Shown piece by piece: positions 2,718 to 53,833 of a DNA stretch of 64,000 nt. The stretch is from Thermoguttaceae bacterium (lineage in GTDB: Bacteria; Planctomycetota; Planctomycetia; Pirellulales; Thermoguttaceae): positions 10,945 to 74,944 of the forward strand of contig JAZMZV010000246.1 in the NCBI GenBank assembly GCA_045586185.1, read 5' to 3'. The number at the start of each line of letters is the position of its first letter. The stretch's first letter is position 1. The notes beneath the pieces are model-generated. The model had not been told where the DNA came from and did not search any database. It saw nothing but the letters and a program-made list of their open reading frames with translations. The position numbers and the translations under genes were made by a program.

Positions 2718-3240
2718 AGACTTCGTCCTGACGCCTGCGCCGTGCAGACGTCAGCTTGAAAAATGTGATTTATGTCAAGTTCAAGACGATAAAAGGCTAT
2801 CGGCTTTTCCCCGTCCTGAACGGATACGTCTTTTTATTACAGTATATTATATATAAAGTTGCAATTTTGTAAATAGGGATATTAAAAGAAGTTTATGCGG
2901 GGGGCTCCCAATTTGAGTTGAAAAAAACATACAAGACGGTATTTTAATTATTACCAGAAAAACCGTTATCATTCTTACATTCGGTTTATTTTAATCGCTA
3001 AATTACGCTCTTTTCTCATTCCGAAAAAAATTTTTTGAACGGGCGCTTGTATTTTTTTTGAAATCTATTAAAATTTAGCCAATTAATATTGACAGAAGCA
3101 GAAAATGAAGCAAACAGCAAATCAATTCGTAAATGTTAATTGAGAAAAATAATATTTCCTAATTAATATAATCGATACTTTCCTGTTGTTTGATTTTTCC
3201 CACCTCGAGTTCCCCGCCTTTAATCCTACCTGCCTTTGAG

Positions 3241-3627
3241 ATGAACAGATTCCAACGTAAAACGCCAGCAATGGCTCGATTGATTGTAATCCGCGGATCC
3301 GCTACAACGGACAGCGTTACCATTCCTTTGCCCTGTCTTATCGGTCGCGGTCGAGAAGTGGATTTATGCGTCGACAGCTTAATCGTAAGCCGAAATCATT
3401 GTCGTCTGGATTTACAGGATGGAAAAATCTTTCTTACCGATTTGGGATCTCGAAATGGCACTATTGTCAATGGTCAGTTCATTCCAGAAAACGTTCCTGT
3501 AGAGTTAAGCAATCAGAGCGCGTTTTCTATCGGACCGTTAACGTTTCAGCTTGAATTTCAGCCGACGGAAATCATTCATCGCGACAATCAAAGCGCCGCC
3601 AGCCACGAATTGCACGTTGCCAGTTAG
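3241..3627 (+). CDS. small FHA-domain protein
   Basis: Start moved to ATG 3241. FHA signature CLIGRGREVDLCVDSLIVSRNHCRLDLQDGKIFLTDLGSRNGTIVNG. Confidence 0.8.
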   Translation: MNRFQRKTPAMARLIVIRGSATTDSVTIPLPCLIGRGREVDLCVDSLIVSRNHCRLDLQDGKIFLTDLGSRNGTIVNGQFIPENVPVELSNQSAFSIGPLTFQLEFQPTEIIHRDNQSAASHELHVAS

Positions 3628-3634
3628 AAGGCGC

Positions 3635-3660
3635 TAGGCAGTAGGCAATAGACCGTAGGG
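3635..3660. repeat. short heptamer array (GGCAGTA type)
   Basis: TAGGCAG TAGGCAA TAGACCG TAGGG, 8 nt after the FHA gene stop. Confidence 0.7.
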
Positions 3661-3759
3661 ATGTTTAACTACAGCCTCTTTTCTTTGACGTTTTCTGTAT
3701 TTTTCGAAGTTCTTATAAATTCCTCTAGCATAAAATTGTAAAATTGGATATAATATATA

Positions 3760-3798
3760 GAGTTGCGAGTTGAGAAAAGTTCGGACGGCTCTCAACTC
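3760..3798. repeat. GCGAGTT-type repeat plus hairpin in the glgP leader
   Basis: GAGTTGCGAGTTGAG followed by a 9-bp hairpin GAGTTGAGA/TCTCAACTC (3767-3798, 14-nt loop). The track ORF start at 3770 (TTG) is inside it. Confidence 0.75.
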
Positions 3799-3838
3799 AA
3801 TGGCTATTTATCCACTATTACTTTCATTTTCCATTATC

Positions 3839-7657: not shown

Positions 7658-7680
7658 GGAGTGCGACGGCTTGACGTCGC
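7658..7680. repeat. GGAGTGCGRCGG hairpin motif, copy 1
   Basis: GGAGTGCGACGGCTTGACGTCGC with stem GCGACG/CGTCGC. Near-identical copies at 16652 and 16783 (inverted). Confidence 0.75.
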
Positions 7681-7794
7681 TTTCGTATAATGCGGACTTC
7701 GTCCGCCTTGAAAAAACTTTCGGTCGCCAGCAAGCTGGCTCCCTTTTAGGGAAGTTTTTTCAAGGATGGGAAAAGAGGGTATTCGAAATAATAT

Positions 7795-7833
7795 GAGGGG
7801 AAAACCTTTTTTGAAAAAAAGGTTCTTCCCCTC
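7795..7833 (-). terminator. hairpin downstream of the 7869-11891 CDS (terminator candidate)
   Basis: GAGGGGAAAACC...GGTTCTTCCCCTC, 12 bp plus one bulge. The inner T6/A7 run also pairs. Only a weak U-run follows on the minus strand. Confidence 0.35.
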
Positions 7834-7868
7834 AAACTCCCCTTTCCAAAAAACTTTAGTAAGGGGCG

Positions 7869-11891: not shown

Positions 11892-12128
11892 TGCGGTATT
11901 GGAAAGCTGAACTTTCAGGGAATATTTATTATTCAAAATATATACGCTATTATAAGATAATAAAAAGAAAAAAACAAGAGGGCGGCGAGGCGCCGCATCC
12001 CTTTTTCCTTTTGGGTGCGTTCAAATCTGGGGGGCGCCAGAAAAAGGAAAGGAATTTGGAACTCTTTCGTAGCCCCCAGATTTATCTGGGGGACTAAATA
12101 AAACGCTCCTCCCCAAAACGCTTCCCTT

Positions 12129-12170
12129 CCCCTCCCTTCCCCGCTCCATTCGGAGCGGAGAAGGGAGGGG
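12129..12170. other. 19-bp GC-rich hairpin in a divergent spacer
   Basis: CCCCTCCCTTCCCCGCTCC ATTC GGAGCGGAGAAGGGAGGGG (one C/A mismatch). Smaller hairpins lie at 11982-11996, 12073-12092 and 12211-12230. Confidence 0.7.
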
Positions 12171-12311
12171 AATTCGTGCGTTATAATATTATTTGGCGTT
12201 GTATTTGCACCCCACACCTAAAGGTGTGGGCTACGTTTTAGATACCCATCTCACCTATTTTCGCAACTCAAAATTTATCGCACCCTCCCTTTTCAAAAAA
12301 TCTCTCATCTC

Positions 12312-12373: not shown

Positions 12374-13969
12374 ATGCTAAACGGAAAGAGTTTGACTTTT
12401 GTTTTTATACTGACGCTGATTGCATCCATAACCCTCAACGCGGCTGAGAATGCGTCGTCGAAAAAAAGCGTTGATGACGCTCAACAGCGCTTTGGCAAAC
12501 CGGCAGTAAATCGTTTTGAACAGATGATTCAGTCCGGCAATTTCGATTTAACTCCGCAAGGGTATAACGAATTTACCGTTCTGCATTATGCTGTGTTTAT
12601 GGACAATTTGGATCTCGCCAAACAATTGGTCGAAAAGGGCGCAGACGTCAGCGCTAAAAACAGGCACAATATAGAGCCCTTATTCTTTGCTGCTGATAAT
12701 GACAATTTGGAAATGGTAAAACTGCTTGTTGAGAATGGAGTAGACGTCAACAATCGAGACTATAACGGCGGCAATCCAGCGCTGCTCGTTGCAGCGTTAA
12801 AAGGCAATTGGGAAATGTTTCAATATCTTGTTGAAAACGGCGCCGATATATTCATCAAAAATTCGCATGGCTGTTCTACTATACACGCAGCCGCGGAAGG
12901 CGGCAATTTGGAAATTGTTAAATGGCTCATCGAGAACGGATTGGACGTCAACACAAAAGTGGCATGTGAATGTACATGTCTGCATCATGCAGCTAAAAGC
13001 GGCAATATCGAATTGATTAAATGGTTCATTGATAAAGGATTGGACATAAACGCCAAAGATATCGAAGAACGCACCGTTTTACATTATGCCGCTGAAGGAG
13101 GCAGCGTGGAAGCGGTTCAGTGGCTTGTCGAACAGGGATTAGACATTAATGCCGTAATTGCTAATCCGAATCGTCGGACTCGTTACATCGGCGGAAACCT
13201 TCATATAGATCTTGATAACGATGGGGTCGATTTATTATCCATCGCGGCGCTGACTGGCAATTTGAAACTGGTTCAATGGCTGGTTGAGCAAGGAATGGAC
13301 GCCGTCGTCGACAATGATATTTTAAGACCGGCGGTTAAAAGCGGCAATATTGAACTCGTTGAATGGCTTGTCGAACAAGGCGCCAATATAAATCAAAACA
13401 AAAATCTGTTATTCTATGCAGCTCTAAATGGCAATTTGAAGCTGGTTCAGTACCTTGTAAAGCAGGGCGCTGACATTAAAAAATCAAATAATGTTTTACA
13501 AGGGGCGGCATGCAGCGGCAATATGGAACTGATTCAATGGCTTATTGAACAGGGCGCTGATGACAACAGCAATGAGGATTCATCAATTTTGGCATACGCT
13601 ATCGACAGTCACGATGTCAACGTATTGCGTTTTTTTGTTGAAGAGAAAAAAATAAACGTTAATGCGTCTATCTCTTCTGCTCGTTACCGTTCACCTTTAG
13701 AACATGCTGTAAATACTGACGATTTTGAAATGGTGAAATTTCTTGTTGAACATGGAGCTGACGCCAATCCAAACAGATGGTCTCGTATAATTCCATATTG
13801 GTATTACTTACATCAACAGGGTCATAACCCTGAGACCGTCAACTACCTTCGAGAACATGACAATACGCTGATAATTTGGAGCGGCGTTTTATCGCTGATA
13901 GTTATATCAATTACTTCATATATAATTTATAGAAATCTTCGATCTAAAAAACCCGTCGAGACGGAGTAA
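12374..13969 (+). CDS. exported, C-terminally membrane-anchored ankyrin-repeat protein (paralogue 1)
   Basis: Signal peptide MLNGKSLTFVFILTLIASITLNA, at least 10 ANK repeats (TVLHYAV..G..E.V.WL.E.G.D.N) and a C-terminal TM helix IIWSGVLSLIVISITSYIIY followed by RNLRSKKP. Confidence 0.9.
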   Translation: MLNGKSLTFVFILTLIASITLNAAENASSKKSVDDAQQRFGKPAVNRFEQMIQSGNFDLTPQGYNEFTVLHYAVFMDNLDLAKQLVEKGADVSAKNRHNIEPLFFAADNDNLEMVKLLVENGVDVNNRDYNGGNPALLVAALKGNWEMFQYLVENGADIFIKNSHGCSTIHAAAEGGNLEIVKWLIENGLDVNTKVACECTCLHHAAKSGNIELIKWFIDKGLDINAKDIEERTVLHYAAEGGSVEAVQWLVEQGLDINAVIANPNRRTRYIGGNLHIDLDNDGVDLLSIAALTGNLKLVQWLVEQGMDAVVDNDILRPAVKSGNIELVEWLVEQGANINQNKNLLFYAALNGNLKLVQYLVKQGADIKKSNNVLQGAACSGNMELIQWLIEQGADDNSNEDSSILAYAIDSHDVNVLRFFVEEKKINVNASISSARYRSPLEHAVNTDDFEMVKFLVEHGADANPNRWSRIIPYWYYLHQQGHNPETVNYLREHDNTLIIWSGVLSLIVISITSYIIYRNLRSKKPVETE

Positions 13970-14185: not shown

Positions 14186-15337
14186 ATGGCATTGACATAT
14201 TTAACAGCTGGAGAATCGCATGGAAAAGGCATCCTGGCTTTGCTGGACGGTTTTCCCGCCGGACTGGAAATTGATACAGATAAAATCGACGCGCTGCTTC
14301 GTCTTCGTCAGGGCGGATACGGCCGCGGCGGACGTCAACAAATCGAAACCGATTCCGTCGACGTTCTGACCGGCGTAAAAGTCAACCGGACGCTGGGAAG
14401 CCCCGTCGCCCTTTGGGTGAAAAATCGAGACTATAAACTCCCACAAATGCCGGAACTGGAACGTCCGCGCCCGGGTCACGGCGACCTGTCCGGATCTCGC
14501 AAATATCAAGACGGGATTCGCGCCATTCTGGAACGCTCCAGCGCTCGAGAGACGGCGGCGAAAGTCGCGGCGGGCGCTCTGGCGGAACAGCTTTTGGAGA
14601 CGTGCGCCGGGATTCGCGTTCTGGCTTACGTTGTCCGAATTGGGGAAGCGGAATTGACGCCTGACGCAGCCCTGCTCTGCGATTTTGACGCTGCAATTGA
14701 AAAGCGAAACGCCAGCCCGGTGTATTCGCTGTCTTCTCCCAAAGCTGACAAACTCGCCTGCGATTTAATCGACAAAACCCGCCAGGCGGGCGACACGATC
14801 GGCGGAATCATCGAAATTCGCGCGACCGGTTTGCTGTTTGGGCTGGGAACGCACGCTCAATGGACGGACAAGCTCGACGGTCGTCTGGCGCAAGCCGTCA
14901 TGGCGGTTCAGGCGATCAAGGGCGTCGAAATCGGCTTGGGATTTCAGGCGGGATTCGTACCCGGTTCTCAGGCGCACGACGCTATCGGCTTCGACCCGAA
15001 ACTGGTCGATACAAAATGCCTGGGATTCGTCCGCCCAACCAATCGCGCTGGCGGTTTGGAAGCCGGCATGACAAACTCGCAGGACATTGTCGTCCGCGCT
15101 GCAATGAAGCCGATTCCGACAATGCTCAAACCGATGGCATCTGTCAGTCTGATAACAAAACAGCCCGAGGAGGCGACTTACGAACGTTCCGACGTCTGCG
15201 CCGTTCCCGCCGCCGCGATTGTTTTGGAATCGGTTGTCGCCATGACGCTTGCCACAGCGCTGACGGAAAAGTTCGGCTGTGACAACGTCGAGGAAATTCG
15301 GCAGAGAATTACGTTATTCAACAAATTAGCAAGATAG
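14186..15337 (+). CDS. aroC: chorismate synthase
   Basis: LTAGESHGKG, RPGHGDLSG and SARETAAKVAAGA motifs. Full length, 383 aa. Confidence 0.95.
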   Translation: MALTYLTAGESHGKGILALLDGFPAGLEIDTDKIDALLRLRQGGYGRGGRQQIETDSVDVLTGVKVNRTLGSPVALWVKNRDYKLPQMPELERPRPGHGDLSGSRKYQDGIRAILERSSARETAAKVAAGALAEQLLETCAGIRVLAYVVRIGEAELTPDAALLCDFDAAIEKRNASPVYSLSSPKADKLACDLIDKTRQAGDTIGGIIEIRATGLLFGLGTHAQWTDKLDGRLAQAVMAVQAIKGVEIGLGFQAGFVPGSQAHDAIGFDPKLVDTKCLGFVRPTNRAGGLEAGMTNSQDIVVRAAMKPIPTMLKPMASVSLITKQPEEATYERSDVCAVPAAAIVLESVVAMTLATALTEKFGCDNVEEIRQRITLFNKLAR

Positions 15338-15393
15338 GCAGTAGGCAATAGGCAGTAGGCAGTAGATATTACTCGCAACTCGTTACTCGCAAC
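15335..15393. repeat. heptamer-array element (GGCAGTA arm / CTCGCAA arm)
   Basis: TAGGCAG TAGGCAA TAGGCAG TAGGCAG TAG, then ATATTA, then CTCGCAA CTCGTTA CTCGCAA CC. The aroC TAG stop is the first unit. The array ends 4 nt before ATG 15398. Confidence 0.9.
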
Positions 15394-15397
15394 CAAC

Positions 15398-16648: not shown

Positions 16649-16651
16649 TAT

Positions 16652-16674
16652 GGAGTGCGGCGGCTTGACGCCGC
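16652..16674. repeat. GGAGTGCGRCGG hairpin motif, copy 2
   Basis: GGAGTGCGGCGGCTTGACGCCGC. The stem GCGGCG/CGCCGC differs from copy 1 by a compensatory A-T to G-C change. Confidence 0.75.
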
Positions 16675-16782
16675 TTTCATTACCATAACCGCCGAGAACA
16701 ACGAAAAACTTAATTCGCGCTAACAACGCAATGATAATATAGATTCATACAAATATTACAAAGCGTTGCGTTCCCTTTAACA

Positions 16783-16805
16783 GCGACGGCAAACCGTCGC
16801 ACTCC
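16783..16805. repeat. GGAGTGCGRCGG hairpin motif, copy 3 (inverted)
   Basis: GCGACGGCAAACCGTCGCACTCC is the reverse complement of GGAGTGCGACGGTTTGCCGTCGC. With copy 2 it forms an inverted pair around a 108-nt AT-rich segment. Confidence 0.75.
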
Positions 16806-16818
16806 AAAGTCCACCCAA

Positions 16819-18084: not shown

Positions 18085-19761
18085 ATGAAACTCGAAAAAG
18101 TTCTGTGCATTGTATTATTATTGACCCTGAGCGTTTCGGGAACGCTCAACGCGGAAGAAAATTCTACGACTAAAAGAAGCATTGAAGATGCCAAGTCCGC
18201 TTTGGGCAAATCGACCGTAGACCGTTTTGAACAGATGTTTCAATCTGGCGATTTTGATTTCAAGACGTATGGAAATCACGGCGTTACAGTTTTACACTAC
18301 GCTGTCTTTATGAACGATCAAGAACGCGTTAAACTGCTAATCGAAAAAGGAGCCGACGTCAATGCCAAGGATATTGACAGTACAACGCTGTTAATGGCTG
18401 CTACTGATAACAACAATCTGGAAATAACAAAATATCTTGTCGAGAACGGCGCTGACGTCAACGTCCCAGACGACGACGGCGATACAGCTGTATTCTTTGC
18501 AGCTCTAAACGGCAATTGGGAAATGGTTCAATATCTTGTCGAGAAAGGCGCAGATATTACAACTAAAAATAAAAATGATAACACAATTTTAAACTTTGCA
18601 GCTCAAAGCGGCAATTTGAAATTGGTACAATGGCTGGTCGATAAAGGAATAAACGTCAACGCTAAAAACGACAGAGAGTATACATGTCTTCACCATGCAG
18701 CTCAAAGCGGCGATCTGGAGCTGGTTCAATGGCTGGTTGAGAAAGGGCTGGACGTCAACGCTAAAACGGATGAAGACTACACATGCCTGTACCTTGCAGC
18801 TCAAAGCGGGAGTCTGGAGTTGGTCAAATGGCTAGTCGAGAAAGGACTGGACGTCAACGCTGTAAGCGAAGACGATTCAACGCCTCTGCACGCGGCAGCT
18901 CAAAGCGGCAAATTGGAACTGGTCAAATGGCTGGTCGAACAGGGCGCTGACATTCATGCCAAAACGTACAGTAGTCAGACTGTATTATGCTATGCAGCTC
19001 AAAGCGGCAATCTGGAACTGGTTCAATGGCTGGTCGAACAAGGGGCTGAAGGCGTCAAAGATTATGACGTTTTGTATGAAGCGGTTCACAGCAGAAATAT
19101 GGAGCTGATTCAATGGCTCATTGATCAGGGCGCAGACGTATCCACCAATTATTCGGTATTGACCAGCGCGGTTTATTATAACGATATGAAGCTGGCGCAA
19201 TATCTTGTTAAACATGGGGCTAACGTGCGAAAGTCTGTTAACGCATTAGATCAAGCGGTATGGTCCGGCAATATGGAAATGCTTGAATGGCTTATCGCTC
19301 ATGGAGCGGACGTCGACAGTAGAGACAGCGAGGGAAGGTCAGTTTTGTGGTACGCTGTCAACAGTAATAATAAGGACATACTGCATTATCTTATCGAGCA
19401 TGAAGGCGTTGACGTCAATTCATACATATATAAATCATCCATATATAATAATAGTTATTTCTCAGCCTTGGAGGAAGCGGTAAACAGAAACGATTTGGAA
19501 ACGGTCAAATACCTGGTGGAACACGGCGCATATATCAATCCGCATCACGGATTTAAATATTATCGCATTCCCGGCTGGTATAATATGGATCATGTTGATC
19601 AGGAAATTGTACAATATCTTAGAGAACGCGATACTGTTCTTAAAGGACTATCAATCGCGGTATGGCTGATAGTTCTGGCGGTTTTCCTGGCAATTGTCTA
19701 TTTTATCTACAGAATGACTCGACCTAAAAAGCCCGCGAAGACAGAATTATCGAGTTCGTGA
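18085..19761 (+). CDS. exported, C-terminally membrane-anchored ankyrin-repeat protein (paralogue 2)
   Basis: Same architecture as 12374-13969: signal peptide MKLEKVLCIVLLLTLSVSGTLNA, a conserved N-terminal segment (VDRFEQMFQSGDFD...TVLHYAVFMND), ANK repeats, and a C-terminal TM helix LSIAVWLIVLAVFLAIVYFIY followed by RMTRPKKP. Confidence 0.9.
   Translation: MKLEKVLCIVLLLTLSVSGTLNAEENSTTKRSIEDAKSALGKSTVDRFEQMFQSGDFDFKTYGNHGVTVLHYAVFMNDQERVKLLIEKGADVNAKDIDSTTLLMAATDNNNLEITKYLVENGADVNVPDDDGDTAVFFAALNGNWEMVQYLVEKGADITTKNKNDNTILNFAAQSGNLKLVQWLVDKGINVNAKNDREYTCLHHAAQSGDLELVQWLVEKGLDVNAKTDEDYTCLYLAAQSGSLELVKWLVEKGLDVNAVSEDDSTPLHAAAQSGKLELVKWLVEQGADIHAKTYSSQTVLCYAAQSGNLELVQWLVEQGAEGVKDYDVLYEAVHSRNMELIQWLIDQGADVSTNYSVLTSAVYYNDMKLAQYLVKHGANVRKSVNALDQAVWSGNMEMLEWLIAHGADVDSRDSEGRSVLWYAVNSNNKDILHYLIEHEGVDVNSYIYKSSIYNNSYFSALEEAVNRNDLETVKYLVEHGAYINPHHGFKYYRIPGWYNMDHVDQEIVQYLRERDTVLKGLSIAVWLIVLAVFLAIVYFIYRMTRPKKPAKTELSSS
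18598..19092 (+). repeat. five tandem 99-bp units (ANK repeats with high nucleotide identity) inside ankyrin gene 2
   Basis: GCAGCTCAAAGCGG...CTGGTTCAATGGCTGGTCGA recurs at 18598, 18697, 18796, 18895 and 18994, an exact 99-nt period. Confidence 0.85.
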
Positions 19762-20441: not shown

Positions 20442-22139
<1,698 letters not shown>

Positions 22140-22207
22140 GTTGCGAGTTGCGAGTTGCGAGTTGCGAGAATCGCCGCTTGCGTACTACTGCCTACTGCCT
22201 ACTGCCT
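22140..22207. repeat. heptamer-array element (GCGAGTT arm / CTACTGC arm)
   Basis: GTTGCGA x4, centre AATCGCCGCTTGCGTA, CTACTGC x3. It fills the spacer between convergent genes (stops at 22139 and 22211). Confidence 0.9.
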
Positions 22208-22210: not shown

Positions 22211-23434
22211 TTACTCTTTCAATTCTTCCCCTTCTGAGCGCGCAATATAGACGGCGCAGCAGGTGTCGCCGTAGATGTTGACGGTGGTTCTGGTCATGTC
22301 GAGAATGCGGTCAATGGCGAGGATGACGCCCAAGCCTTCCAACGGCAGCCCAACGGCGCGTAAGGCAATAGCAGTCATGACAAAACTTGCCATCGGGATT
22401 CCCGCTGTGCCGGCGGCTGCAAGCATGACAAGCGTGACCATAATTATCTGGTCTGAAAGTGAAAGCGGAAGTCCGTACGCCTGAGACAGGAATATAACAA
22501 TAACGCATTCATACAGAGCCGTGCCGTTCATGTTGAGCGTTGCACCCAAAGGAATAACAAATCCCGACGTCTGACGAGAAACGCCGCTGTTCTTTTCCAG
22601 ACATTCCATCGAAAGAGGAATGGTCGCGTTGGACGTGGCTGTCGAAAACGCCGTCAGCAGGCTTGGAAGCATGTTCACCATGTGACGAATCGGATTGACT
22701 TTGGCGAAGACAATCAAAACAATCGACAGCGTTATAAAGAAGTGGAATCCCATCCCTAAAAAGCTGGTCAGCATAAACATGCCCAGAGAACTGGCGGCTT
22801 GCACCAGTTTGTCGGAATCGCCGGCGTATTTGGCGCACTGAACGGCTATAAGCCCAAAGACGCCAATGGGCGCCAGTCGAACGACCAGCAGCGTCATCTG
22901 CATCATCAGTTCAAAGCACGAGCGGAAAAAATTCTTGAGCGTTTGCGCGTTCGACGACGGTATTGAGTGAATGAGCGTCCCCGCCAGAAAAGCGAAAAAG
23001 ATTACAGGAAGCATGTTTCCCTTGGACATATCCTCAACGACGTTGTTGGGAATCATGTTCATCAACAGTTCGACAAAAGACTTTTGCTGCGCCTGAATCG
23101 CCTGAATATCTTCGAGGTTTGTCGGCATTTCCAGCCCAACGCCCGGACGAAGAATTGTAACAAAAACCATGCCGGTCAGAATCGCCAGCAGCGTCGTGCA
23201 GGCGTAAAAGCCGATGGTTTTGAATCCCATTCGTTTAAGCGCTTCTCCGTCTGGAAGGTTGCCGATTGCGGAAATAATCGAACAAAATATCAACGGCAAA
23301 ACCAGCATGTTAAGCAGCCGCAGGAACAGCGTCCCCATCCAGCCAACGTATCCGATATACGGATAAAACCAGATGCCGAAAACAATTCCGAGGACGATTG
23401 CAATCAAAATCTGCCAATGCAGAGCAAGTTTCAT
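22211..23434 (-). CDS. dicarboxylate/amino acid:cation symporter (DAACS family)
   Basis: 407 aa, polytopic. Family-typical segments SSLGMFMLTSFLG, ATSNATIPLSMEC, VIPLGATLNMNGTALYE and DRILDMTRTTVNIYGD. Confidence 0.9.
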   Translation of the reverse strand: MKLALHWQILIAIVLGIVFGIWFYPYIGYVGWMGTLFLRLLNMLVLPLIFCSIISAIGNLPDGEALKRMGFKTIGFYACTTLLAILTGMVFVTILRPGVGLEMPTNLEDIQAIQAQQKSFVELLMNMIPNNVVEDMSKGNMLPVIFFAFLAGTLIHSIPSSNAQTLKNFFRSCFELMMQMTLLVVRLAPIGVFGLIAVQCAKYAGDSDKLVQAASSLGMFMLTSFLGMGFHFFITLSIVLIVFAKVNPIRHMVNMLPSLLTAFSTATSNATIPLSMECLEKNSGVSRQTSGFVIPLGATLNMNGTALYECVIVIFLSQAYGLPLSLSDQIIMVTLVMLAAAGTAGIPMASFVMTAIALRAVGLPLEGLGVILAIDRILDMTRTTVNIYGDTCCAVYIARSEGEELKE

Positions 23435-23609
23435 AATAGTTTAGGGGGTAGGGAATGGAAGGTTGTCAATCAGCAAACCGCCGACAATAAACATTAGTTC
23501 TATTGTATCCAAATTTCAATAAAAGTAAAGACGGAGAAAATCGATTAAACGGATAAAATTTTCTTTTCGATTATCGACGTTTTTTTGACGATTTCTGACG
23601 TTTAAGCCC

Positions 23610-23638
23610 TTGTAAGAACGCCCTGAAAGCCATATAAT
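23610..23638 (+). promoter_or_regulatory. sigma70-like promoter for the 23793 gene
   Basis: TTGTAA (23610-23615), 17-nt spacer, TATAAT (23633-23638). The ~150-nt leader is almost entirely a heptamer-array element. Confidence 0.5.
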
Positions 23639-23640
23639 AA

Positions 23641-23777
23641 GTGGTAATTAGTAATGAGTAATTGACGCGAAGCGTTCCGCTAGAACCGCGCTAGCGGTTC
23701 AATATTAGGAGTAAGTAATTAGTTCGCAAGCGCTACTCATACCTACTACTTACTACTAACCACTAACCACTAATCAC
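23641..23777. repeat. heptamer-array element (GTAATKA/GGAGTAA arms, ACCACTA arm) with inner hairpin
   Basis: GTGGTAATTAGTAATGAGTAATTGA, hairpin GAACCGC GCTA GCGGTTC (23683-23700), GGAGTAAGTAATTAGTT, CGCAAGCG, CTACTCATACCTACTACTTACTACTAACCACTAACCACTAATCAC. Confidence 0.85.
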
Positions 23778-23792
23778 TTAAAATACGCTCAA

Positions 23793-25706
23793 ATGCGAAT
23801 TACAATATCAATATTCCTGGCGACGTTTTTTATTTACGGCTTTGCTTTGGCGCAAGAGGAGCAAACTCCTTTCCCGATTCTGCCGGAAGAATTGGAAGCG
23901 GCAGAGCCTTTAGACGATACTGCCGTAGCGGAGACGCCCAATCTGGCGGAAGACGTTCAACCGTTAACAAATGACGCCGAAGAAGCCGTTCCGGAAGAAA
24001 CGCCGTCGGATCCGCCGGAACAGGAAACGGATCAACCGGAACAAACAATGCTGCCTGAAGGCATTTCCGAAGAAGAAGCCCGCTGGGCGAACTGGTCGGA
24101 CTGGGATAACGTGGGCGCGAAAAACGACAATTCCAACGTCGCGCCTCAACAGCAGGAACTGATCGCTCCGCAAACGGAAGAAGACGCTCTTGTTGACCAG
24201 TCGCACGCCATGGACAAGTCGGCAGTTCCAGAAATTAACGAGAATCTCGACGCGACGCGTCAGATAAGCGCGGAACCGGAAATGACAGACCCGTTTGAAC
24301 AGGCGCTTGATCAAAACAAAGAAGACATTCAAAAGCCAGACAATAACCAGGAAGAAAACGTTACAGAAAACAACGATTTCCAGACAACGGAAAACGCTCA
24401 AAGCGACAATCCGTCTTCGTCCAATAACTCGCAAAAGTCTGTTACAGATTTAATAGATAACGCAACCGCTGAACCCAAATCCGCTTTGCCGCAGGAAACT
24501 CGCTATATGGAGTCGTTTTCATTGCGTCAGGACAAGCCGGCGAAGATAAACAACCGCATTTCCAGCGTCATTGATAAGATCAAAGTCGTTCGACGCCAGT
24601 ATTTTGACAAGCAGCTCAACACGCAAGACAATTCTCCCTTTGAAGCCATGATGTCCGTTTGCGCTTTTGGCTGTTACACGTCGATTCTCTATACCCCTCA
24701 AAACGAGAAATTCAATACGGCTGGGGCGCTGTGCTGGAACTACCCCATGTGCGAGACTTCCATTTTAGCAATCAACCAAAATTCCAAATCGGTAAACAGC
24801 GAGGAGTTTTCCAAAAATCGAACGGGAAAACCTCTCTTTATGACGCGCTATCCTCACGGACGTCTGACCTCCGTTCCGATGAACGAGTCAGGAACAGTTT
24901 TCCCATACATCGGCTACTGCCAGCAGGAGCGAAGCGGCGAGTTCCTGTCCATGCTGGCAATTGCCCGAGTTGCGGTTGATTACGAGTTTACGCCCCGCAT
25001 GCCGATGGATATAGACGTTCTTATCGCCAGCGCGGATGATTCTCCAGACGCGTTACCGCCAGCCGTTCGATCTTCCGGACTGACGTTTACCGTTGCCGAT
25101 CTGGCGTCAGACGCCATGCTCAACTGCCGCGGCGGAGACATGTCCGCACTGTTGACCTGCTTGTCCTATTACGCTCCGCGGGAGAGTTGGAAAAACGCCT
25201 GGGGAGAAGAATGGTCGGTATTGAAGATTCTGGATCATGAACTCAAACGAACTGTCAACCTGTCCGACTCGGACTCAACAGATCGTCTTTACGGTTTAAC
25301 GTATGCGCTTAGGCGCCGGTTGGCGTTTGACGACAAGCGTCTGGAAATTCAGTACGCCATCGTAGACGAATATCTGGAACGGATGAAAGACTTTGCTCTT
25401 TCGATTCAAAATGAAGACGGTTCTTTTAACGGCGCTTTCTTTACCAGAAAAGGCAAAAGCCGGAACCCGGACGACGATTTCGCCGCTACGGCGCATTTCG
25501 CCCGATGGCTGACAATTCTCTATCACAGCAGCGCATTGGACGACCCTCAACTGACGAAAATGATTGAGTTTCTCGTTTCTGAACTCGAACAGCGGCTGGA
25601 AAGCTGGAACCCGTCGGAGATGTCACAAAAAGACGTCCGCGCCGTTGCCTACGCTCTGCAGGCGATTGCGATTTATCAGCAGCGCTGGGCGGCGAAGAGC
25701 AATTAA
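23793..25706 (+). CDS. exported hypothetical protein with long acidic linker (637 aa)
   Basis: Signal peptide MRITISIFLATFFIYGFALAQE, ~200 aa rich in E/P/D/Q/N, then a ~380-aa globular C-terminal region without motifs I can name. Confidence 0.75.
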   Translation: MRITISIFLATFFIYGFALAQEEQTPFPILPEELEAAEPLDDTAVAETPNLAEDVQPLTNDAEEAVPEETPSDPPEQETDQPEQTMLPEGISEEEARWANWSDWDNVGAKNDNSNVAPQQQELIAPQTEEDALVDQSHAMDKSAVPEINENLDATRQISAEPEMTDPFEQALDQNKEDIQKPDNNQEENVTENNDFQTTENAQSDNPSSSNNSQKSVTDLIDNATAEPKSALPQETRYMESFSLRQDKPAKINNRISSVIDKIKVVRRQYFDKQLNTQDNSPFEAMMSVCAFGCYTSILYTPQNEKFNTAGALCWNYPMCETSILAINQNSKSVNSEEFSKNRTGKPLFMTRYPHGRLTSVPMNESGTVFPYIGYCQQERSGEFLSMLAIARVAVDYEFTPRMPMDIDVLIASADDSPDALPPAVRSSGLTFTVADLASDAMLNCRGGDMSALLTCLSYYAPRESWKNAWGEEWSVLKILDHELKRTVNLSDSDSTDRLYGLTYALRRRLAFDDKRLEIQYAIVDEYLERMKDFALSIQNEDGSFNGAFFTRKGKSRNPDDDFAATAHFARWLTILYHSSALDDPQLTKMIEFLVSELEQRLESWNPSEMSQKDVRAVAYALQAIAIYQQRWAAKSN

Positions 25707-25838
25707 GCTACTAGCCGCTAGCTACTAGCTTCTAGCTTGGTTATTTTAGTTTCTGGCTTTAAAAATTAACGCCGAGAACTAAAAATGAACAAGCTAATGG
25801 CTAGTAGCTAATAGCTAACAGCTATCTACTGTCTAACC
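25707..25838. repeat. ~130-nt GCTAG-family long-hairpin element, copy 1
   Basis: 33-nt arms at 25707-25739 and 25790-25822 (25/33 Watson-Crick; 7 of 8 mismatches are transitions). An inner pair TTAGTTTCTGGC/GCCGAGAACTAA is also present. Homologous to 56909-57030. It fills the spacer between convergent stops at 25706 and 25839. Confidence 0.85.
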
Positions 25839-28664: not shown

Positions 28665-28676
28665 ATAGATTATTAA

Positions 28677-28735
28677 GTTGCGAGTTGCGAGTAGCGAGTT
28701 GCGAGAATTATCAGTTTATTTAACCACTAACCAAC
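28677..28735. repeat. heptamer-array element (GCGAGTT arm / ACCACTA arm)
   Basis: GTTGCGAGTTGCGAGTAGCGAGTTGCGAG, then AATTATCAGTTTATT, then TAACCACTAACCAAC. The 31-nt left arm is identical to 47013-47043. The track ORF start at 28678 is an artefact. Confidence 0.9.
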
Positions 28736-29310: not shown

Positions 29311-29315
29311 TTTGG

Positions 29316-29396
29316 AAATAGGGAATAGGGAATAGTAATTCGGCCTTCGGCGAATTTAAAAACTACTCCCTACTCCCTACTCCCCATTCCCTACTC
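29316..29396. repeat. heptamer-array element (GGGAATA arm / AATTCGGCC hairpin / CTACTCC arm)
   Basis: GAAATAGGGAATAGGGAATAGT, AATTCGGCCTTCGGCGAATT (29337-29356), CTACTCCCTACTCCCTACTCCCCATTCCCTACTC. The TAG stop of the minus-strand hydrolase gene (29391-29393) lies in the right arm. Confidence 0.9.
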
Positions 29397-30287
29397 AGCA
29401 GCAAAGACAGTTAAGACGCCTGTTGATCCGAGATAGTCCGCCAAAGCGTGCGTTGCGCCCACCTGATTGACTACGTTGTAAATCGTAACTTTTTCTTTTT
29501 GAGAAGCGGGAACGCCAGCAACGCCGTCTCGTCCCATGGCTTCCGTCTGTCTGTCCGGCGTAACGAACCGATACCATTTCAAACCGGTGTCTGCACAATT
29601 AACCGTTAAATAACATCGAGTCTGACATTCCAGAGCTTTCTCTCTGCCGCAAACAAACGCGTAAGTCGGAACCGCCGGCGCGATAAGCAGAGATTGAATC
29701 TTTCCCGACGTTCCCGGTTGAGTTCTGCCGTAGACTTTTCCTCCTGAGAGGAGCTGACAAGCTCCCAAAACCGTATTGGCGCCAAAGCTGTAGCCAATCA
29801 GACGAATCTCGGCGCTTTCCGGCGCGGATTCCAGGAATCTCGTCAGATAAAAGCTCTCCCACTGACTTCGCCGTTCGGCATTGGTCGCGTCTTGACGTAT
29901 CGGCGCGCCAGTTCGAGCGGAATTCCAGAACCAGACAACGAGCTTATAATTCTTATCGGCAATAACCCTGTTGAGATACTGACGAATCAGATAACCGTCG
30001 CTGATTGCAGAACATCTGTCCGCCTGATTTCCATGAATGTAAATAAACGTCTTGCATCCTTCGGAATCCTTCCAGATCGCGTCCTTGTCCGCCGCTGTCC
30101 AACCAGTCGAGGTCTCAACAACGGCTTTAAAGCCTGCGTCCATCTGTTCCGGATCGAGACTGCCGCCGTGTCCACAAGAATCTACGACATAAAATTCTTC
30201 CGCCTGCGCTGCACAGAACGCAAAAAGAACTGTCATCAACGCGGCAGCGCAAAACAGACGCTTGGCAAAGGCAATATAATATTGCAT
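29391..30287 (-). CDS. exported alpha/beta hydrolase, DUF900-like
   Basis: Start moved to ATG 30287 (signal peptide MQYYIAFAKRLFCAAALMTVLFAFCAAQA). FIYIHGNQ and the nucleophile-elbow-like IRLIGYSFGANTV. Confidence 0.75.
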   Translation of the reverse strand: MQYYIAFAKRLFCAAALMTVLFAFCAAQAEEFYVVDSCGHGGSLDPEQMDAGFKAVVETSTGWTAADKDAIWKDSEGCKTFIYIHGNQADRCSAISDGYLIRQYLNRVIADKNYKLVVWFWNSARTGAPIRQDATNAERRSQWESFYLTRFLESAPESAEIRLIGYSFGANTVLGACQLLSGGKVYGRTQPGTSGKIQSLLIAPAVPTYAFVCGREKALECQTRCYLTVNCADTGLKWYRFVTPDRQTEAMGRDGVAGVPASQKEKVTIYNVVNQVGATHALADYLGSTGVLTVFAAE

Positions 30288-30646
30288 GATTATTCCTTTC
30301 GATTGGTTTAAATTTGTTGTATGAATTATTGAACTACAGAGTATTATACTCATTTCGACAATCAAATCAACGCCGATTCATTATAAATTTAACGAATTTA
30401 GCGATTGTAACGGCGAATTTTATCAACTGATTTTGATTAATTTAGCCTCATGAGAATCATGGGGTAAAAAAATTTGTTTTTTTTCGAAAAATCGGACGTT
30501 TTTTTCCACCGTTTCAAATTTGTAAGCTATAGATTAGTTGTAACGCTTGAGCGGGTAAAAGCCCCCAGGCATAAATAAAAATACTTTTGGTTCTGGCGCA
30601 GTTCGTTTACCGACTGACGCTGTACGTGAATAAGGAGTGTACCCCA

Positions 30647-31986: not shown

Positions 31987-32079
31987 AAGGGAGTAGGGAG
32001 TAGTTTTTAAATTCGCCGTAGGCGAATTACTATTCCCCATTCCCTATTCCCTATTTCCTTCTATTCCCCATTCCCTCAC
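31987..32079. repeat. heptamer-array element (GGGAGTA arm / AATTCGCC hairpin / CCCTATT arm)
   Basis: AAGGGAGTAGGGAGTAG, AATTCGCCGTAGGCGAATT (32010-32028), CTATTCCCCATTCCCTATTCCCTATTTCCTTCTATTCCCCATTCCCTCAC. The track ORF start at 32040 is an artefact. Confidence 0.9.
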
Positions 32080-32105: not shown

Positions 32106-33158
32106 TTACTCGTTCTGATTCTTTTTATCAGCGCTCTCTTTTTCCAACTTTTTGAGCCGATTGTCGGCGTCGCGAATCTGCTTTTTGAATTCCGGCAATT
32201 TGGAAATCAGAGCGAATTTGAGCAGCTGTTCCCGTTCCGGACAGGCGGGCGCGCCGAGCATTTTCGCTCCCGGTTCGATATTGTTCATAACGCCGCACTT
32301 GGCGCCTAAAATCGCGCAATCGCCAATATGGACGTGATCTCTAACGCCGACCTGCCCTGCCATGACGACGTAATCTCCGGTTGTAACGCTGCCGGCAATT
32401 CCCACCTGAGCGCAAAGGAGATTGTGTTTTCCGATCTGGCAGTTGTGACCAACCATCACCTGATTGTCGATCTTCGTACCGTCGCCAATTCGCGTCGAGC
32501 CATATGCGCCGCGGTCAATGGTACTGTTGGCGCCAACGTCAACGTCGTCTCCCAAAATGACGTTGCCCAGCTGAGCCGCCAACGCATGTTTGCCGTCAAC
32601 GAGTTTGTATCCAAAGCCGTTTGCTCCAATCGACGCCCCCGCGCTGAGAATGCAGCGTTTTCCGACAACGCAGTCTTCATGAACCACGACGCCGGGATAG
32701 AGGACAGAATTCTCGCCGATTTTCGCTCCCGCCATGACGCAGGAATGAGGATGAAGGACGACGTTGTCGCCGATTTCCGCCTCCGGACCGACGTAAACAA
32801 ACGGATAAATTGTTACATTCACACCGATTTTTGCCGATGGATCTATACTCGCCTGCAGGCTGACAAACGGCTCAGGCGCAACTCGCTGAGGACGAAACAG
32901 TTTCACGATTTTCGTAAAGGCGTCGTGAACGTCGTCGACCATCAACGCCGGGATTCCAACGGACAAATCTGATTTCGGCATGACAACCGCAGACGCCTGC
33001 GTATTAAACAGCGTATCGAGTCTGCCTACGTTGTCGATGAGCGTAATGTCGCCCGGCCCGGCCTCCGAAAGGATAGCGGCGTTTTCGATTACCGTAGAAC
33101 CGTCTCCTACGATGGTCGCGTTAACCAGTTTTGCCAGTTGGGAAAGTGTTTGTGCCAT
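32106..33158 (-). CDS. lpxD: UDP-3-O-(3-hydroxyacyl)glucosamine N-acyltransferase
   Basis: N-terminal LpxD domain (LSQLAKLVNATIVGDGSTVIENAAILSEAGPGDITLIDN), a long left-handed beta-helix of hexapeptide repeats, and a C-terminal helix. Confidence 0.9.
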   Translation of the reverse strand: MAQTLSQLAKLVNATIVGDGSTVIENAAILSEAGPGDITLIDNVGRLDTLFNTQASAVVMPKSDLSVGIPALMVDDVHDAFTKIVKLFRPQRVAPEPFVSLQASIDPSAKIGVNVTIYPFVYVGPEAEIGDNVVLHPHSCVMAGAKIGENSVLYPGVVVHEDCVVGKRCILSAGASIGANGFGYKLVDGKHALAAQLGNVILGDDVDVGANSTIDRGAYGSTRIGDGTKIDNQVMVGHNCQIGKHNLLCAQVGIAGSVTTGDYVVMAGQVGVRDHVHIGDCAILGAKCGVMNNIEPGAKMLGAPACPEREQLLKFALISKLPEFKKQIRDADNRLKKLEKESADKKNQNE

Positions 33159-33165
33159 ATTGAGT

Positions 33166-33267
33166 GAGGGAATAGGGAGTAGGGAATAGGGAGTAGAGGC
33201 AATAGGCAGTAGGCAGTAGGCAGTAGGAAAATTTTACTACTGCCTCTTGCCTACTCCCTACTGCCTA
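33166..33267. repeat. heptamer-array hairpin (GGGAATA/GGCAGTA arm, CTACTGC arm) between aspS and lpxD
   Basis: GGGAATA/GGGAGTA x4 and GGCAATA/GGCAGTA x4, loop AAAATTTTA, CTACTGCCTCTTGCCTACTCCCTACTGCCTAA. The arms are largely complementary. The aspS TAG stop (33265-33267) lies in the right arm. Confidence 0.9.
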
Positions 33268-36623: not shown

Positions 36624-36692
36624 CGGCGAGGCGCCGCTCCCAATCCGCGCTACCGCGCGAAACGTGTTATAATCACTCCCGTTGGTCGCTTG
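36624..36692 (-). repeat. ~67-nt GC-rich dispersed element, copy 1 (inverted relative to 48519-48585)
   Basis: The reverse complement reads CAAGCGACCAACGGGAGTG..(15 nt variable)..GCGCGGTAGCGCGGATTGGGAGCGGCGCCTCGCCG. 19 + 36 nt match copy 2 with one mismatch. Confidence 0.85.
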
Positions 36693-36697: not shown

Positions 36698-36728
36698 CTC
36701 TCGCCACTCGCCACTCGCAACTCGCAAC
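36698..36728. repeat. CTCGCCA/CTCGCAA heptamer arm in the leader of the 1389-aa gene
   Basis: CTCTCTCGCCACTCGCCACTCGCAACTCGCAAC ends 12 nt before ATG 36741. The track ORF start at 36690 is an artefact. Confidence 0.9.
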
Positions 36729-36740
36729 TATTCATTTGAC

Positions 36741-44920: not shown

Positions 44921-44930
44921 AGCGTGAGCA

Positions 44931-53829: not shown

Positions 53830-53833
53830 AATA

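Follow-up and report, generated by a model that had tools for sequence, protein, structure and literature searches.

Heptamers are the most over-represented long simple sequence repeats (SSRs) in bacteria, and their role has been debated since the STRR sequences were described. The latter (CCCCAGT and others) are tandem heptamers in non-coding DNA that were defined in heterocystous cyanobacteria by specific units. REP/BIME/REPIN elements are intergenic and often located just past stops, carry a conserved 5′ GTAG, form inverted doublets with a fixed head-tail order and are mobilised by RAYT. The known cases of backup stop codons (tandem or out-of-frame) are single codons, not arrays. To our knowledge, the sole published rationale for a strand and position bias of heptamers is quadruplex formation.

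Such a bias was described for intergenic tandem heptamers with the unit GGGAATC in Xanthomonas and GGGGA(C/T)T in Nostoc (Rehm et al. 2015, PMC4692102); the GGGGACT repeat of Nostoc is complementary to the cyanobacterial STRR1 (Rehm et al. 2015, PMC4692102). The G-rich strand of these repeats lies 0–50 nt past stops on the coding strand or before starts on the non-coding strand, and some of the repeats overlap stop codons. The mean distance is 28 nt to the 5′ ORF and 160 nt to the 3′ ORF, each genome contains 70–75 convergent pairs, and the length and sequence of the repeats differ among close relatives (PMC4692102). TAACTGA direct repeats form a single family that was reported for marine Beggiatoaceae, cyanobacteria and Bacteroidetes (MacGregor 2015, PMC4679880). 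They are found in 'forward' orientation a few nucleotides before the start codons of genes without a Shine-Dalgarno (SD) motif, a translational role was proposed for them, and inverted pairs are nearly absent (one in 170; PMC4679880). The polarity analysed below is already known for GGGAATC/GGGGAYT and, since Rehm et al. (2015) reported the same polarity, the phenomenon presented here is a broader variant of a known one and is not genome-specific.

Order of array pairs in the window and in fetched loci

The window, i.e. the whole 64-kb stretch of planctomycete DNA that was analysed, was searched for arrays with TRF and with our own period-7 scan. The arrays are tandem 7-nt units located in the spacers between ORFs. 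Roughly half of the intergenic spacers of the window contain an array, at least six heptamer families coexist, and arms of different families are combined within one locus. The 16 loci listed in an earlier note on this DNA were all recovered (16/16), together with loci 3757 and 47013. The spacer downstream of aroC illustrates the arrangement: positions 15335–15397 of the + strand read TAG GCAG(TAGGCAA)(TAGGCAG)(TAGGCAG)TAG ATATT (ACTCGCA)(ACTCGTT)(ACTCGCA)ACC AAC ATG. The features of the window are as follows.

1778–1807, +: G-type arm, family A (GGCAGTA); TRF, scan
1822–1875, +: C-type arm, family B (CTCGCAA); TRF, scan; overlaps the 3′ end of minus-strand gene 1857–2717, with the TAG stop of this gene formed by a variant unit
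3635–3662, +: solitary G-type array, family A, 8 nt past the stop of 3190–3627
3757–3799, +: hairpin (z -3.2) of a short B-type G-arm, a loop and a B-type C-arm, ending at ATG 3800; TATAAT box just 5′ of the hairpin
15335–15365, +: G-type arm, family A; aroC (chorismate synthase) ends at the first TAG of the arm
15371–15394, +: C-type arm, family B, ending 4 nt before ATG 15398
20476–20506, +: G-type arm, family C (TAGGGAA); TRF, scan
20507–20527, +: centre hairpin TTCGCC-NNN-GGCGAA
20533–20562, +: C-type arm, family A (CTACTGC); TRF, scan
22138–22168, +: G-type arm, family B, in register with the TGA stop of the gene
22185–22207, +: C-type arm, family A, 3 nt off the stop of convergent gene 22211–23434
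23435–23462, +: array that is G-type on the + strand, i.e. a C-type leader abutting the ATG of minus-strand gene 22211–23434
23638–23662, +: G-type arm (GTAATGA/GTGGTAA), immediately 3′ of a CATATAAT box
23736–23778, +: C-type arm (ACTAACC), ending 14 nt before ATG 23793
25706–25738, +: GCTAG-family arm, G/C-neutral, TAG on both strands
25792–25824, +: GCTAG-family arm, complementary to 25706–25738; hairpin z -7
28676–28705, +: G-type arm, family B, immediately 3′ of a TATGATATAG box; 30-mer identical to 47013–47042
28721–28735, +: short C-type arm (AACCACT), 12 nt before ATG 28747
29314–29335, +: G-type arm, family C, 3 nt past a stop
29363–29396, +: C-type arm (CTACTCC), abutting the stop of convergent gene 29391–30365
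31988–32003, +: G-type arm (AGGGAGT), i.e. C-type leader of the minus-strand gene starting at 31968
32009–32029, -: centre hairpin TTCGCCTACGGCGAATTT
32030–32076, +: C-type arm (CTATTCC), i.e. G-type trailer past the stop of minus-strand gene 32106–33158
33162–33227, +: composite G-type arm, family C then A, i.e. C-type leader of minus-strand gene 32106–33158
33237–33267, +: C-type arm with the TAG stop of minus-strand gene 33265–35040 in register
36698–36729, +: solitary C-type array, family B, 11 nt before ATG 36741
44926–44981, +: G-type arm, family C, 8 units; TRF, scan; for minus-strand gene 44225–44920 a C-type leader that stops 9 nt short of the ATG
45150–45180, +: C-type arm, family B, 17 nt before ATG 45198
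47013–47042, +: G-type arm, family B, 2 nt past a promoter-like TTGATT-17-TATAAT (46983–47011)
47067–47098, +: AATTGCT-family arm, G/C-ambiguous; a C-rich tract then extends to ATG 47120
48492–48508, +: G-type arm, family A, 1 nt past a stop
48584–48616, +: C-type arm, family B, 16 nt before ATG 48633
52229–52258, +: solitary C-type array, family C, 8 nt before ATG 52267
53831–53870, +: G-type arm, family A, 1 nt past a stop
53874–53891, +: centre hairpin TTCGCCTTCGGCGAATTT
53977–54010, +: C-type arm, family A, 8 nt off the stop of convergent gene 54019–56823
56909–57026, +: GCTAG-family arm pair (56909–56940 and 56995–57026) forming a hairpin (z -4.2)
58643–58675, +: G-type arm, family D (GTGGTTA); TRF
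58693–58742, +: C-type arms, CTAACCA then CTACTCC, running into the C-rich leader of ATG 58766
60154–60184, +: G-type arm, family A, with the gene's TAG stop in register
60188–60205, +: centre hairpin TTCGCCTTCGGCGAATTT
60205–60238, +: C-type arm (CTCCTCA); TRF, scan
61672–61731, +: composite G-type arm, family C then D; ORF 60277–61680 ends at a TAG inside the array
61749–61804, +: C-type arm, family D (CTTACCA), reaching ATG 61804
63059–63091, +: G-type arm, family A; first unit is the gene's TAG stop; variant pattern identical to 15335–15365
63230–63259, +: C-type arm, family B, 29 nt before ATG 63289, with AAGGAG between; carries the same CTCGTTA variant as 15371–15394

The two-armed heptamer loci of the window have the order G-type arm, centre, C-type arm in 14–16 cases, and none is reversed. 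When pairs were defined as arrays of opposite G/C type with a spacing of ≤250 nt, G-then-C order was observed for 7/7 pairs with strict thresholds and 14/14 pairs with lenient thresholds (C-then-G, 0), which is in agreement with the polarity claimed earlier for the listed families. If orientation were random, 14/14 in the same order would have p ∼6e-5. The same order was found in the fetched loci. Among 118 genome loci ascertained solely by (TAGGCAG)2.4 on either strand, G-then-C pairs outnumbered C-then-G pairs by 48 to 0, and the ratio was 36 to 3 when (GAGTTGC)3.4 was used to ascertain 120 metagenome loci. In the pooled set of 238 loci from many phyla, 84/87 adjacent opposite-type pairs are G-then-C. 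In two of the three exceptions (L235 and L142) the C-arm precedes the ATG and the G-arm follows the stop of a small ORF; one true C-then-G exception is left (L189). Two-armed loci occur in tandem, convergent and divergent gene contexts at background proportions (the gene calls of the fetched loci are crude ORF calls), and the absence of a context bias among the pairs agrees with the proposal that the order holds whatever the gene orientation. The GCTAG family had been described as having the opposite order. This holds in the weak sense that its arms are G/C-neutral, but they contain TAG on both strands.

Arrays at ORF ends

The position of solitary arrays relative to ORFs follows the same rule. 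In the fetched loci, stop-proximal solitary arrays are G-type on the sense strand in 77 cases versus 8, and start-proximal ones are C-type on the sense strand in 44 cases versus 13, whereas the polarity is absent from arrays located ≥60 nt from both ORFs (21 versus 26). For unpaired arrays, the neighbouring ORF is closer at the 5′ end of the G-rich strand (median 28 nt) than at its 3′ end (120 nt). Because solitary arrays comply and arrays far from ORFs do not, the polarity is a property of single arrays that are flush with ORF ends and not of the two-armed unit. The earlier concept of a two-armed locus as a polar unit is therefore retained for the order itself and abandoned for the unit, as solitary arrays obey the rule too.

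After stop codons the rule is obeyed no less strictly than in leaders, and this half of it calls for a separate explanation. The earlier note had placed a sense G-type array directly after the stop codon, and the start of such arrays is indeed at a median distance of 0 nt from the gene end. The stop codon of the gene lies inside the G-type array in 39/90 cases and is in register with it in 44/90 (∼1/7 expected); the rare sense-C arrays after stops are at a median distance of 19 nt. TAG is the dominant stop codon of G-type units. In families that had not been used for ascertainment, stop-proximal units contain a sense stop codon in 59/82 cases (39.9 expected); for sense start codons the figure is 22/82 (34.8 expected). 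Stops in all three frames occur within ≤33 nt past the stop codon in 9/29 window genes, compared with 8% expected. However, units that are stop-free on both strands are still sense G after stops (33 versus 4), so stop content cannot fully account for the order seen after stops, and stop codons as its sole driver were ruled out. Known RNA families and tRNAs were not found in the window, and the fetched loci contain only nine tRNA genes, with one nearby array.

On the start side, an SD-like motif precedes only 4/29 curated window genes, in line with the weak SD usage suggested earlier. The G-poor and unstructured character predicted for the leaders was also confirmed: window leaders contain 11% G with a GC skew of -0.47, and the mean MFE of the region from -30 to +20 is -2.9 kcal/mol, versus -10.1 kcal/mol for internal coding windows. 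The C-type arms, with 0–1 G per 7-nt unit, end 0–24 nt before the ATG in approximately half of the 29 curated genes, i.e. close to start codons as had been noted. Since the leaders are SD-poor, G-poor and nearly unstructured, the C-type arms fit a leader constraint, and this constraint is visible with the arrays masked too (12% G, GC skew -0.40). The arms may be either tolerated in such leaders or active there as the standby or enhancer sites suggested earlier. In several loci a TATAAT-like box is located upstream of the G-arm, which places both arms within one 5′ UTR.

Proposed origin of the polarity

The reading that we prefer, with a probability of approximately 45%, is that the arrays are products of slippage that are oriented by what ORF boundaries tolerate. 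They would be fast-evolving heptanucleotide SSRs that arise and are renewed by slippage and are kept where they are harmless, between genes, and their orientation would be set by the ORF boundary against which the array lies flush. Before a start codon, the tolerated sense strand would be the G-depleted one alone, which offers no ATG, GTG or TTG and no SD-like purine runs and would stay unstructured; the organism would need such an unstructured, start-free leader strand because initiation uses SD-less, G-poor, unfolded leaders. Past the ORF, the sense strand would be C-depleted and G-rich, with stops in three frames or, as is presumably the case for stop-free units, codons one mutation from stops. 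TAG, TGA and TAA are without C, and every frame would be covered since 7 mod 3 = 1, so an array could abut or overlap the end of the CDS, with translation ending within a few codons. Two boundary arrays that meet in a short spacer would produce the arrangement of G-arm, centre and C-arm on either strand and for any gene orientation, and arms of the same family could also pair as a hairpin, often around a TTCGCC-NNN-GGCGAA stem. From the observed orientation rule, its independence of pairing, the stop register, the leader composition and the turnover of the arrays, we infer selection on translation start and stop as the cause. G-arms that follow TATAAT-like boxes in 5′ UTRs count against this reading, as the stop rationale is inapplicable to them. 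In addition, the recurring heptamers and identical variant patterns described below would be more easily explained by copying or by a sequence-specific factor than by free slippage.

In a bolder version, which we consider doubtful, the arrays would be pan-bacterial ORF-boundary elements, renewing themselves and recruited in many phyla as translation insulators, with a loading platform free of start codons upstream of the ORF and a cassette of stops in every frame downstream, or would be produced by an unrecognised directional repeat-adding process. Either possibility would explain why the same few heptamers are found across phyla.

Pairing of the arms and centre hairpins

Twenty window loci were folded on both strands and compared with dinucleotide shuffles. 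Approximately 12/20 fold far better than the shuffles (z -3 to -9), as would be expected if arms and centre formed one structured element, such as an extended bidirectional terminator, an attenuator within the 5′ UTR or a mobile hairpin of the REPIN/MITE kind. The G-first order would then be built into the element and inherited by copying, and heterologous arms would result from later exchange between elements. A composite module of G-arm, TTCGCC-NNN-GGCGAA hairpin, TTTAAAA and C-arm at five loci, in which the small stem and then TTT follow the G-arm, is consistent with this, as are the identical variant patterns of loci 15335 and 63061 in both arms, the GC-rich terminator-like hairpins present in many centres in other phyla and the 70–75 convergent pairs per Xanthomonas genome (Rehm et al. 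2015, PMC4692102). We nevertheless regard a structured element as an unlikely source of the polarity. In the other ∼8/20 loci the arms are non-pairing and fold no better than shuffles, and the polarity is the same, so hairpins do not explain the order, as the earlier note had argued, and an explanation by hairpins only was ruled out. Arms of different families pair poorly, again as stated before, with a folding z of ∼0 at 1777, 15335, 22140, 44931 (+ strand) and 63061. The polarity is as strict in non-pairing arms and solitary arrays as elsewhere, it is lost away from ORF ends, and the pairs have no gene-orientation bias. Moreover, a consensus scan found 28 terminator-like sites versus 29.9 expected, a chance-level count that speaks against an enrichment of terminators, and Pfam detected no transposase or RAYT domain in the main ORFs of the window. 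Circularisation of mRNA was rejected as well, on the grounds that the families of the 5′ C-arm and 3′ G-arm of one gene are non-complementary (window arrays, by inspection).

Turnover and recurrence of the arrays

As the chorismate synthase of the window itself has no database record, the aroC spacer was compared among relatives at 96%, 92% and 73% protein identity. One unit is gained at 96% identity, and a different family is present at both 92% and 73%. One orthologous ORF ends with ..QLER*, ..QLGSRQ* or ..QLGR* in three strains; in versions L119 and L120 a different array provides its TAG, and in the window a degenerate array remnant alone follows the stop. TAGGCAG, TAGGGAA and GAGTTGC recur in Mesorhizobium, Acidobacteriota, Bacteroidota, cyanobacteria and Planctomycetota. 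A literature search for the exact arrays returned solely unrelated shRNA or primer matches.

The exchange of unrelated families at orthologous sites in close strains is a poor fit to a sequence-specific reader, and array-free leaders are equally G-poor. It is thus rather improbable that the arrays are sites for a putative single-strand binder of 7-nt periodic RNA that actively enhances or regulates translation; ribosomal protein S1 or a cold-shock protein could be candidates for the C-type leaders, and a UAG-N4-reading ring protein for the G-type trailers. Such a factor would be in line with the location of C-type arms shortly before the ATG of about half of the genes in an SD-poor genome, the occurrence of the same heptamers across phyla and the dominance of TAG in G-type units, and one was proposed for the TAACTGA repeats upstream of start codons (MacGregor 2015, PMC4679880).

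The arrays sit where synteny with close relatives breaks, and their copy number differs between near-identical strains. Both observations would also be compatible with a polarity that stems from the generation of the arrays, in which new units are joined in one direction to a G-rich 3′ end that faces away from the ORF, for example by slippage at stalled synthesis or by telomere-like break healing, and the arms grow toward the centre of the spacer regardless of function. The geometry, which is mirrored at the centre and does not depend on gene orientation, agrees with this, but arrays far from ORFs have no polarity, and the in-register own stop and the depletion of sense starts point to selection at the coding boundary. 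We therefore consider directional addition very unlikely; we know of no directional repeat-adding enzyme in bacteria.

The least probable explanation invokes C-rich, G-poor arms that act as Rho-loading (rut) pads guarding ORF entries, or G-quadruplexes/R-loops on the G-rich strand: the C-type arms are rut-like in composition, with 0–1 G per 7 nt, and rut pads would unify the start-side and stop-side rules, but cyanobacteria are without Rho, and cyanobacterial loci obey the rule, which speaks against Rho as the driver (stop-flush sense-G arrays are present in cyanobacterial fetched loci, and Nostoc can be added). As for quadruplexes, family C (GGGAATA) with ≥4 units fits the G3N4 motif, and G4 formation was shown for the near-identical GGGAATC (Rehm et al. 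2015, PMC4692102), whereas G-runs are limited to GG doublets in families A and D and are absent from family B, and all of these families obey the rule.

In summary, the bias holds for non-quadruplex families, non-pairing arms and Rho-less organisms, so that three candidate explanations fall away and the evidence points towards the boundary of the coding sequence. If selection at this boundary is the cause, the arrays would be a readable record of start- and stop-region requirements in SD-independent bacteria. There are also two consequences for annotation: ORFs are routinely over-extended through C-type arms, and genuine C-termini can be array-encoded and strain-variable.

Comparison with known systems

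Like STRR sequences, the window arrays are tandem heptamers in non-coding DNA; 0 window units match STRR units. The arms of families A and C read ..AGTAGG.., which resembles the 5′ GTAG of REP elements. However, a REP is a single imperfect palindrome of 20–40 nt, whereas the window arms are tandem 7-mers, ∼8/20 doublets are non-pairing, and solitary and non-pairing arrays are still polar; RAYT is also absent from the window ORFs by Pfam. With regard to backup stops, three copies of a stop-bearing heptamer provide a stop in every frame, as found within ≤33 nt for 9/29 window genes, but unlike in that system stop-free units follow the rule too. TAACTGA repeats are likewise sense heptamer repeats before SD-less starts, comparable to the C-type arms at around half of the 29 ATGs. 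They differ from the window arrays in that no stop-side partner was described and the unit is not G/C-skewed, and TRF output for the window contained no TAACTGA array.

The repeats of Rehm et al. share the strand and position rule (here 77 versus 8 after stops and 44 versus 13 before starts) and the convergent pairs (here 14 versus 0 in the window and 84 versus 3 in the fetched loci). The ORF distances are also similar, 28 and 160 nt in their study and 28 and 120 nt for the unpaired arrays here. The unit of window family C, GGGAATA, is one base off GGGAATC, and this family alone has the G3–4 tract with which four units can form a G-quadruplex; families A, B, D, GCTAG and AATTGCT are without GGG. 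Unlike in their systems, at least six families are present here, most of them unable to form three-tetrad quadruplexes and mixed within loci, the arrays occupy about half of the window spacers, in a planctomycete whose leaders are SD-less and G-poor, and the rule is shown over many phyla and for units without G-tracts.

Period-7 arrays and their order

The window is chromosomal DNA with a G+C content of ~50%, and its genes have housekeeping and glycan-degrading functions (RNase E/G, chorismate synthase, GyrB, AspRS, LpxD, UvrD, glycoside hydrolases and a UmuC-like polymerase). Its chorismate synthase has affinity to Planctomycetota near Thermoguttaceae/Pirellulales, the closest proteins (98–85% identity) being metagenomic. 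Tandem arrays with a period of 7 nt occupy roughly half of the intergenic spacers and belong to the following families:

Family A: G-form GGCAGTA, C-form TACTGCC
Family B: G-form GCGAGTT, C-form AACTCGC
Family C: G-form GGGAATA or GGGAGTA, C-form TATTCCC
Family D: G-form GTGGTTA, C-form TAACCAC
GCTAG family: G/C-neutral
AATTGCT family: a further heptamer family of the window

The locus at 15335–15397 illustrates the arrangement: the stop codon of chorismate synthase is the first TAG of (TAGGCAG)4.4, and (ACTCGCA)3 starts five bases past this array and ends 4 nt short of the next ATG. Other features of the window are:

35454–36623: bacterial chromosomal gene homologous to topoisomerase VI subunit A/Spo11
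12374–13969 and 18085–19761: genes for two large ankyrin-repeat proteins, the first missing from the syntenic spacer of L119 (a relative with 96% protein identity), in which the non-coding flanks join without a break
7705–7866 and 12067–12235: non-coding stretches, ~87% conserved with rumen Thermoguttaceae MAG contigs (L096, L060) and without a match in Rfam
63289–64000, plus strand: gene with a lipoprotein-like signal peptide (MRCTLMNIAAFLAMTLFMTSC), extending past the window end and among the few with a clear Shine-Dalgarno (SD) site (AAGGAG)
63301–63936, minus strand: ORF listed opposite the preceding gene, probably spurious

All 16 two-armed loci listed in the earlier note exist, and those at 3757 and 47013 can be added. 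With a pair defined as two neighboring arrays that differ in G/C type and are separated by at most 250 nt, the proposed order, G-type before C-type, was found in 7/7 pairs at the strict score and 14/14 at the lenient score, and C-then-G in none. The order also stood in a wider count in two independent samples, each ascertained through one array family, though on both strands, and with ORFs called by longest-ORF heuristics; together they contain only 9 tRNA genes. A (TAGGCAG)2.4 scan of genome collections on either strand gave 118 loci (from Mesorhizobium, Acidobacteriota, Bacteroidota, cyanobacteria, Chloroflexota, Armatimonadota and Planctomycetota) with 48 G-then-C pairs and 0 C-then-G pairs; among 120 metagenome loci from a (GAGTTGC)3.4 scan, the counts were 36 and 3. 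In two of the three C-then-G cases the arrays enclose a small ORF, whose ATG follows the C-arm and whose stop precedes the G-arm; the third, L189, is a genuine exception. The G-then-C order is identical on both strands and in any combination of gene orientations.

One metagenome locus (L142, contig Ga0082212_10002490, 9040–9420) contains nested inverted arrays, (GCGCAGA)n (ACTCGCA)n [small ORF] (GCGAGTT)n (CTCTGCG)n, with identical GAAGATGAAA linkers on either side. The entire arrangement falls within one long ORF call and resembles a cassette.

Polarity of single arrays

The polarity does not belong to the two-armed unit: solitary arrays are oriented alike relative to the neighboring gene. 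Within 40 nt of a stop codon, solitary arrays are G-type on the sense strand in 77 cases versus 8, and within 40 nt of a start codon they are sense C-type in 44 versus 13. Read along their G-rich strand, unpaired arrays lie a median 28 nt from the ORF on the 5′ side versus 120 nt from the one on the 3′ side, and arrays at least 60 nt from both ORFs showed no orientation preference (21 versus 26). The earlier argument against simple hairpin formation was borne out by folding analysis, in which the same order was present in foldable and non-foldable loci: at ~12 window loci the arms are complementary (z of −3 to −9 relative to shuffled sequence), and at ~8 the arms belong to different families and show no folding beyond that of shuffled sequence. 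The proportions of pairs in tandem, convergent and divergent gene contexts match the background. Taken together, these results indicate that the G-then-C order reflects two boundary-anchored arrays in one spacer.

Arrays at stop codons

The median distance between the ORF end and the start of a sense G-type array is 0 nt. The stop codon lies inside the array in 39/90 cases, and the array is in register with it in 44/90 (~1/7 expected). Sense C-type arrays after stops are few, at a median distance of 19 nt. Relative to permutation of the unit letters, and with the families used for ascertainment excluded, 59 of the 82 units contain a sense stop codon (39.9 expected) and 22 a sense start codon (34.8 expected). 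Since 7 mod 3 is 1, three units give a stop in all frames; all-frame stops no more than 33 nt past the stop codon were found for 9/29 window genes, versus 8% expected. In one orthologous gene from three strains, coding is conserved up to ..KRQL and the endings are ER*, GSRQ* and GR*; the TAG comes from a different array in the strains L119 and L120, and the window has no more than a degenerate remnant after the TAG. Stop content is not the whole story, as units that are stop-free on both strands still prefer sense G after stops (33 versus 4). GC skew after stops in the window falls from +0.19 to +0.06 when arrays are left out, which shows that the post-stop G-richness is specific to the arrays.

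The ORF at 20442–22139 continues across the two arms of the 20475 locus, as its (TAGGGAA) array has CAG in place of the single TAG that would be in frame. A hydrophobic stretch precedes the next in-frame ATG (20679), so either the arrays may be translated or the ORF start may be mis-set.

Arrays at start codons

For 29 curated genes, the 40 nt upstream of the ATG contain 11% G (12% with arrays masked) versus 26% in coding sequence, with a leader GC skew of −0.47 (−0.40 masked). Because leaders are G-poor even with arrays masked, C-type arrays fit a leader constraint that is independent of them. The region from −30 to +20 folds at a mean of −2.9 kcal/mol, versus −10.1 ± 3.5 kcal/mol for internal windows, and the suggested weak SD usage is apparent from SD-like motifs in only 4/29 genes.

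G-arms of family B repeatedly begin just past TATAAT-like boxes (3745, 28660 and 47000 on the plus strand, 45034 on the minus strand), so many mRNAs may begin with the repeat. Promoter-like matches from a scan are TTGATT-17-TATAAT at 46983–47011 and TTGACG-16-TATAAT at 45061–45034, and at loci with such a box both arms are predicted to lie within one 5′ UTR. These arrays have the form (GTTGCGAG)n, a few bases past the box, and one in L119 (~17130, minus strand) is placed likewise.

Turnover and shared variants

In the orthologous spacer of the chorismate synthase gene, the strain with 96% protein identity has one extra A unit, the 92% strain lacks the A array, and in the 73% strain (GCGGTTA/GCAGTTA)4 precedes a C-rich tract; all three retain the order. 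At 15335 and 63061 both arms share identical variant patterns (centers of 5 and 138 nt), and 28676 and 47013 are identical 30-mers. A small stem, TTCGCC-NNN-GGCGAA then TTT, directly follows the sense G-arm at five loci.

Tandem paralogues of a PF12044 metallopeptidase (58766–60163 and 60277–61680) have near-identical stretches and different array families before, between and after them, which indicates that the arrays changed after the duplication. A MITE-like element at 7658–7684 and 16652–16678 (element ~16650–16812) starts with GGAGTGCG[AG]CGGCTTGACG[CT]CGCTTTC, with an inverted end (..GCGACGGCAAACCGTCGCACTCC) in the 16650 copy; L119 has a spacer of just 18 nt at the orthologous position, which makes the element an insertion polymorphism. 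A dispersed element of ~70 nt (CGGCGAGGCGCCGCTCCCAATCCGCGC ... GTTATAATCACTCCCGTTGGTCGCTTG; 36622–36692, inverted at 48519–48587, also in L119 at ~20180) has a TATAAT box and occurs in either orientation beside a B-type C-arm of constant own orientation.

Explanations for the polarity

We favor, with a probability of roughly 45% and thus no more than moderate confidence in the mechanism, a model in which slippage repeats that renew themselves are under selection at ORF boundaries. The arrays would renew themselves by slippage, and selection would filter their orientation. A G-depleted sense strand leaves no room for start codons or SD-like runs and remains unfolded, and its complement is C-depleted and stop-prone. 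A structured or mobile bipartite element, for which one might point to the complementary arms, is an unlikely source of an orientation that solitary arrays share. An RNA-binding factor with a 7-nt periodicity is slightly less probable. Directional genesis of the repeats is slightly more doubtful again, given the lack of polarity far from ORFs. Least probable are G-quadruplex, R-loop or Rho effects: quadruplexes are not general, as families A, B and D have no G-tracts, and neither is Rho, as stop-flush sense-G arrays occur in cyanobacterial loci, and in Nostoc (PMC4692102).

Comparison with known heptameric repeats

Heptameric repeats with the units GGGAATC in Xanthomonas and GGGGA(C/T)T in Nostoc were studied by Rehm et al. 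(2015; PMC4692102), who counted 70–75 pairs per genome "with convergent orientation". The G-rich repeats lie 0–50 nt past stops on the coding strand or before starts on the non-coding strand, may overlap stop codons, and have a mean distance of 28 nt to the 5′ ORF versus 160 nt to the 3′ ORF; quadruplexes were favored and the function was left open. MacGregor (2015; PMC4679880) reported TAACTGA repeats immediately before start codons without an SD site and suggested that they act in translation. In light of these precedents, the arrays of the window extend a known phenomenon to a broader variant. New aspects are that many families, most of them incapable of forming quadruplexes, coexist and are mixed, that the polarity is demonstrated in many phyla, and that pairing, quadruplexes and Rho are eliminated as general causes.
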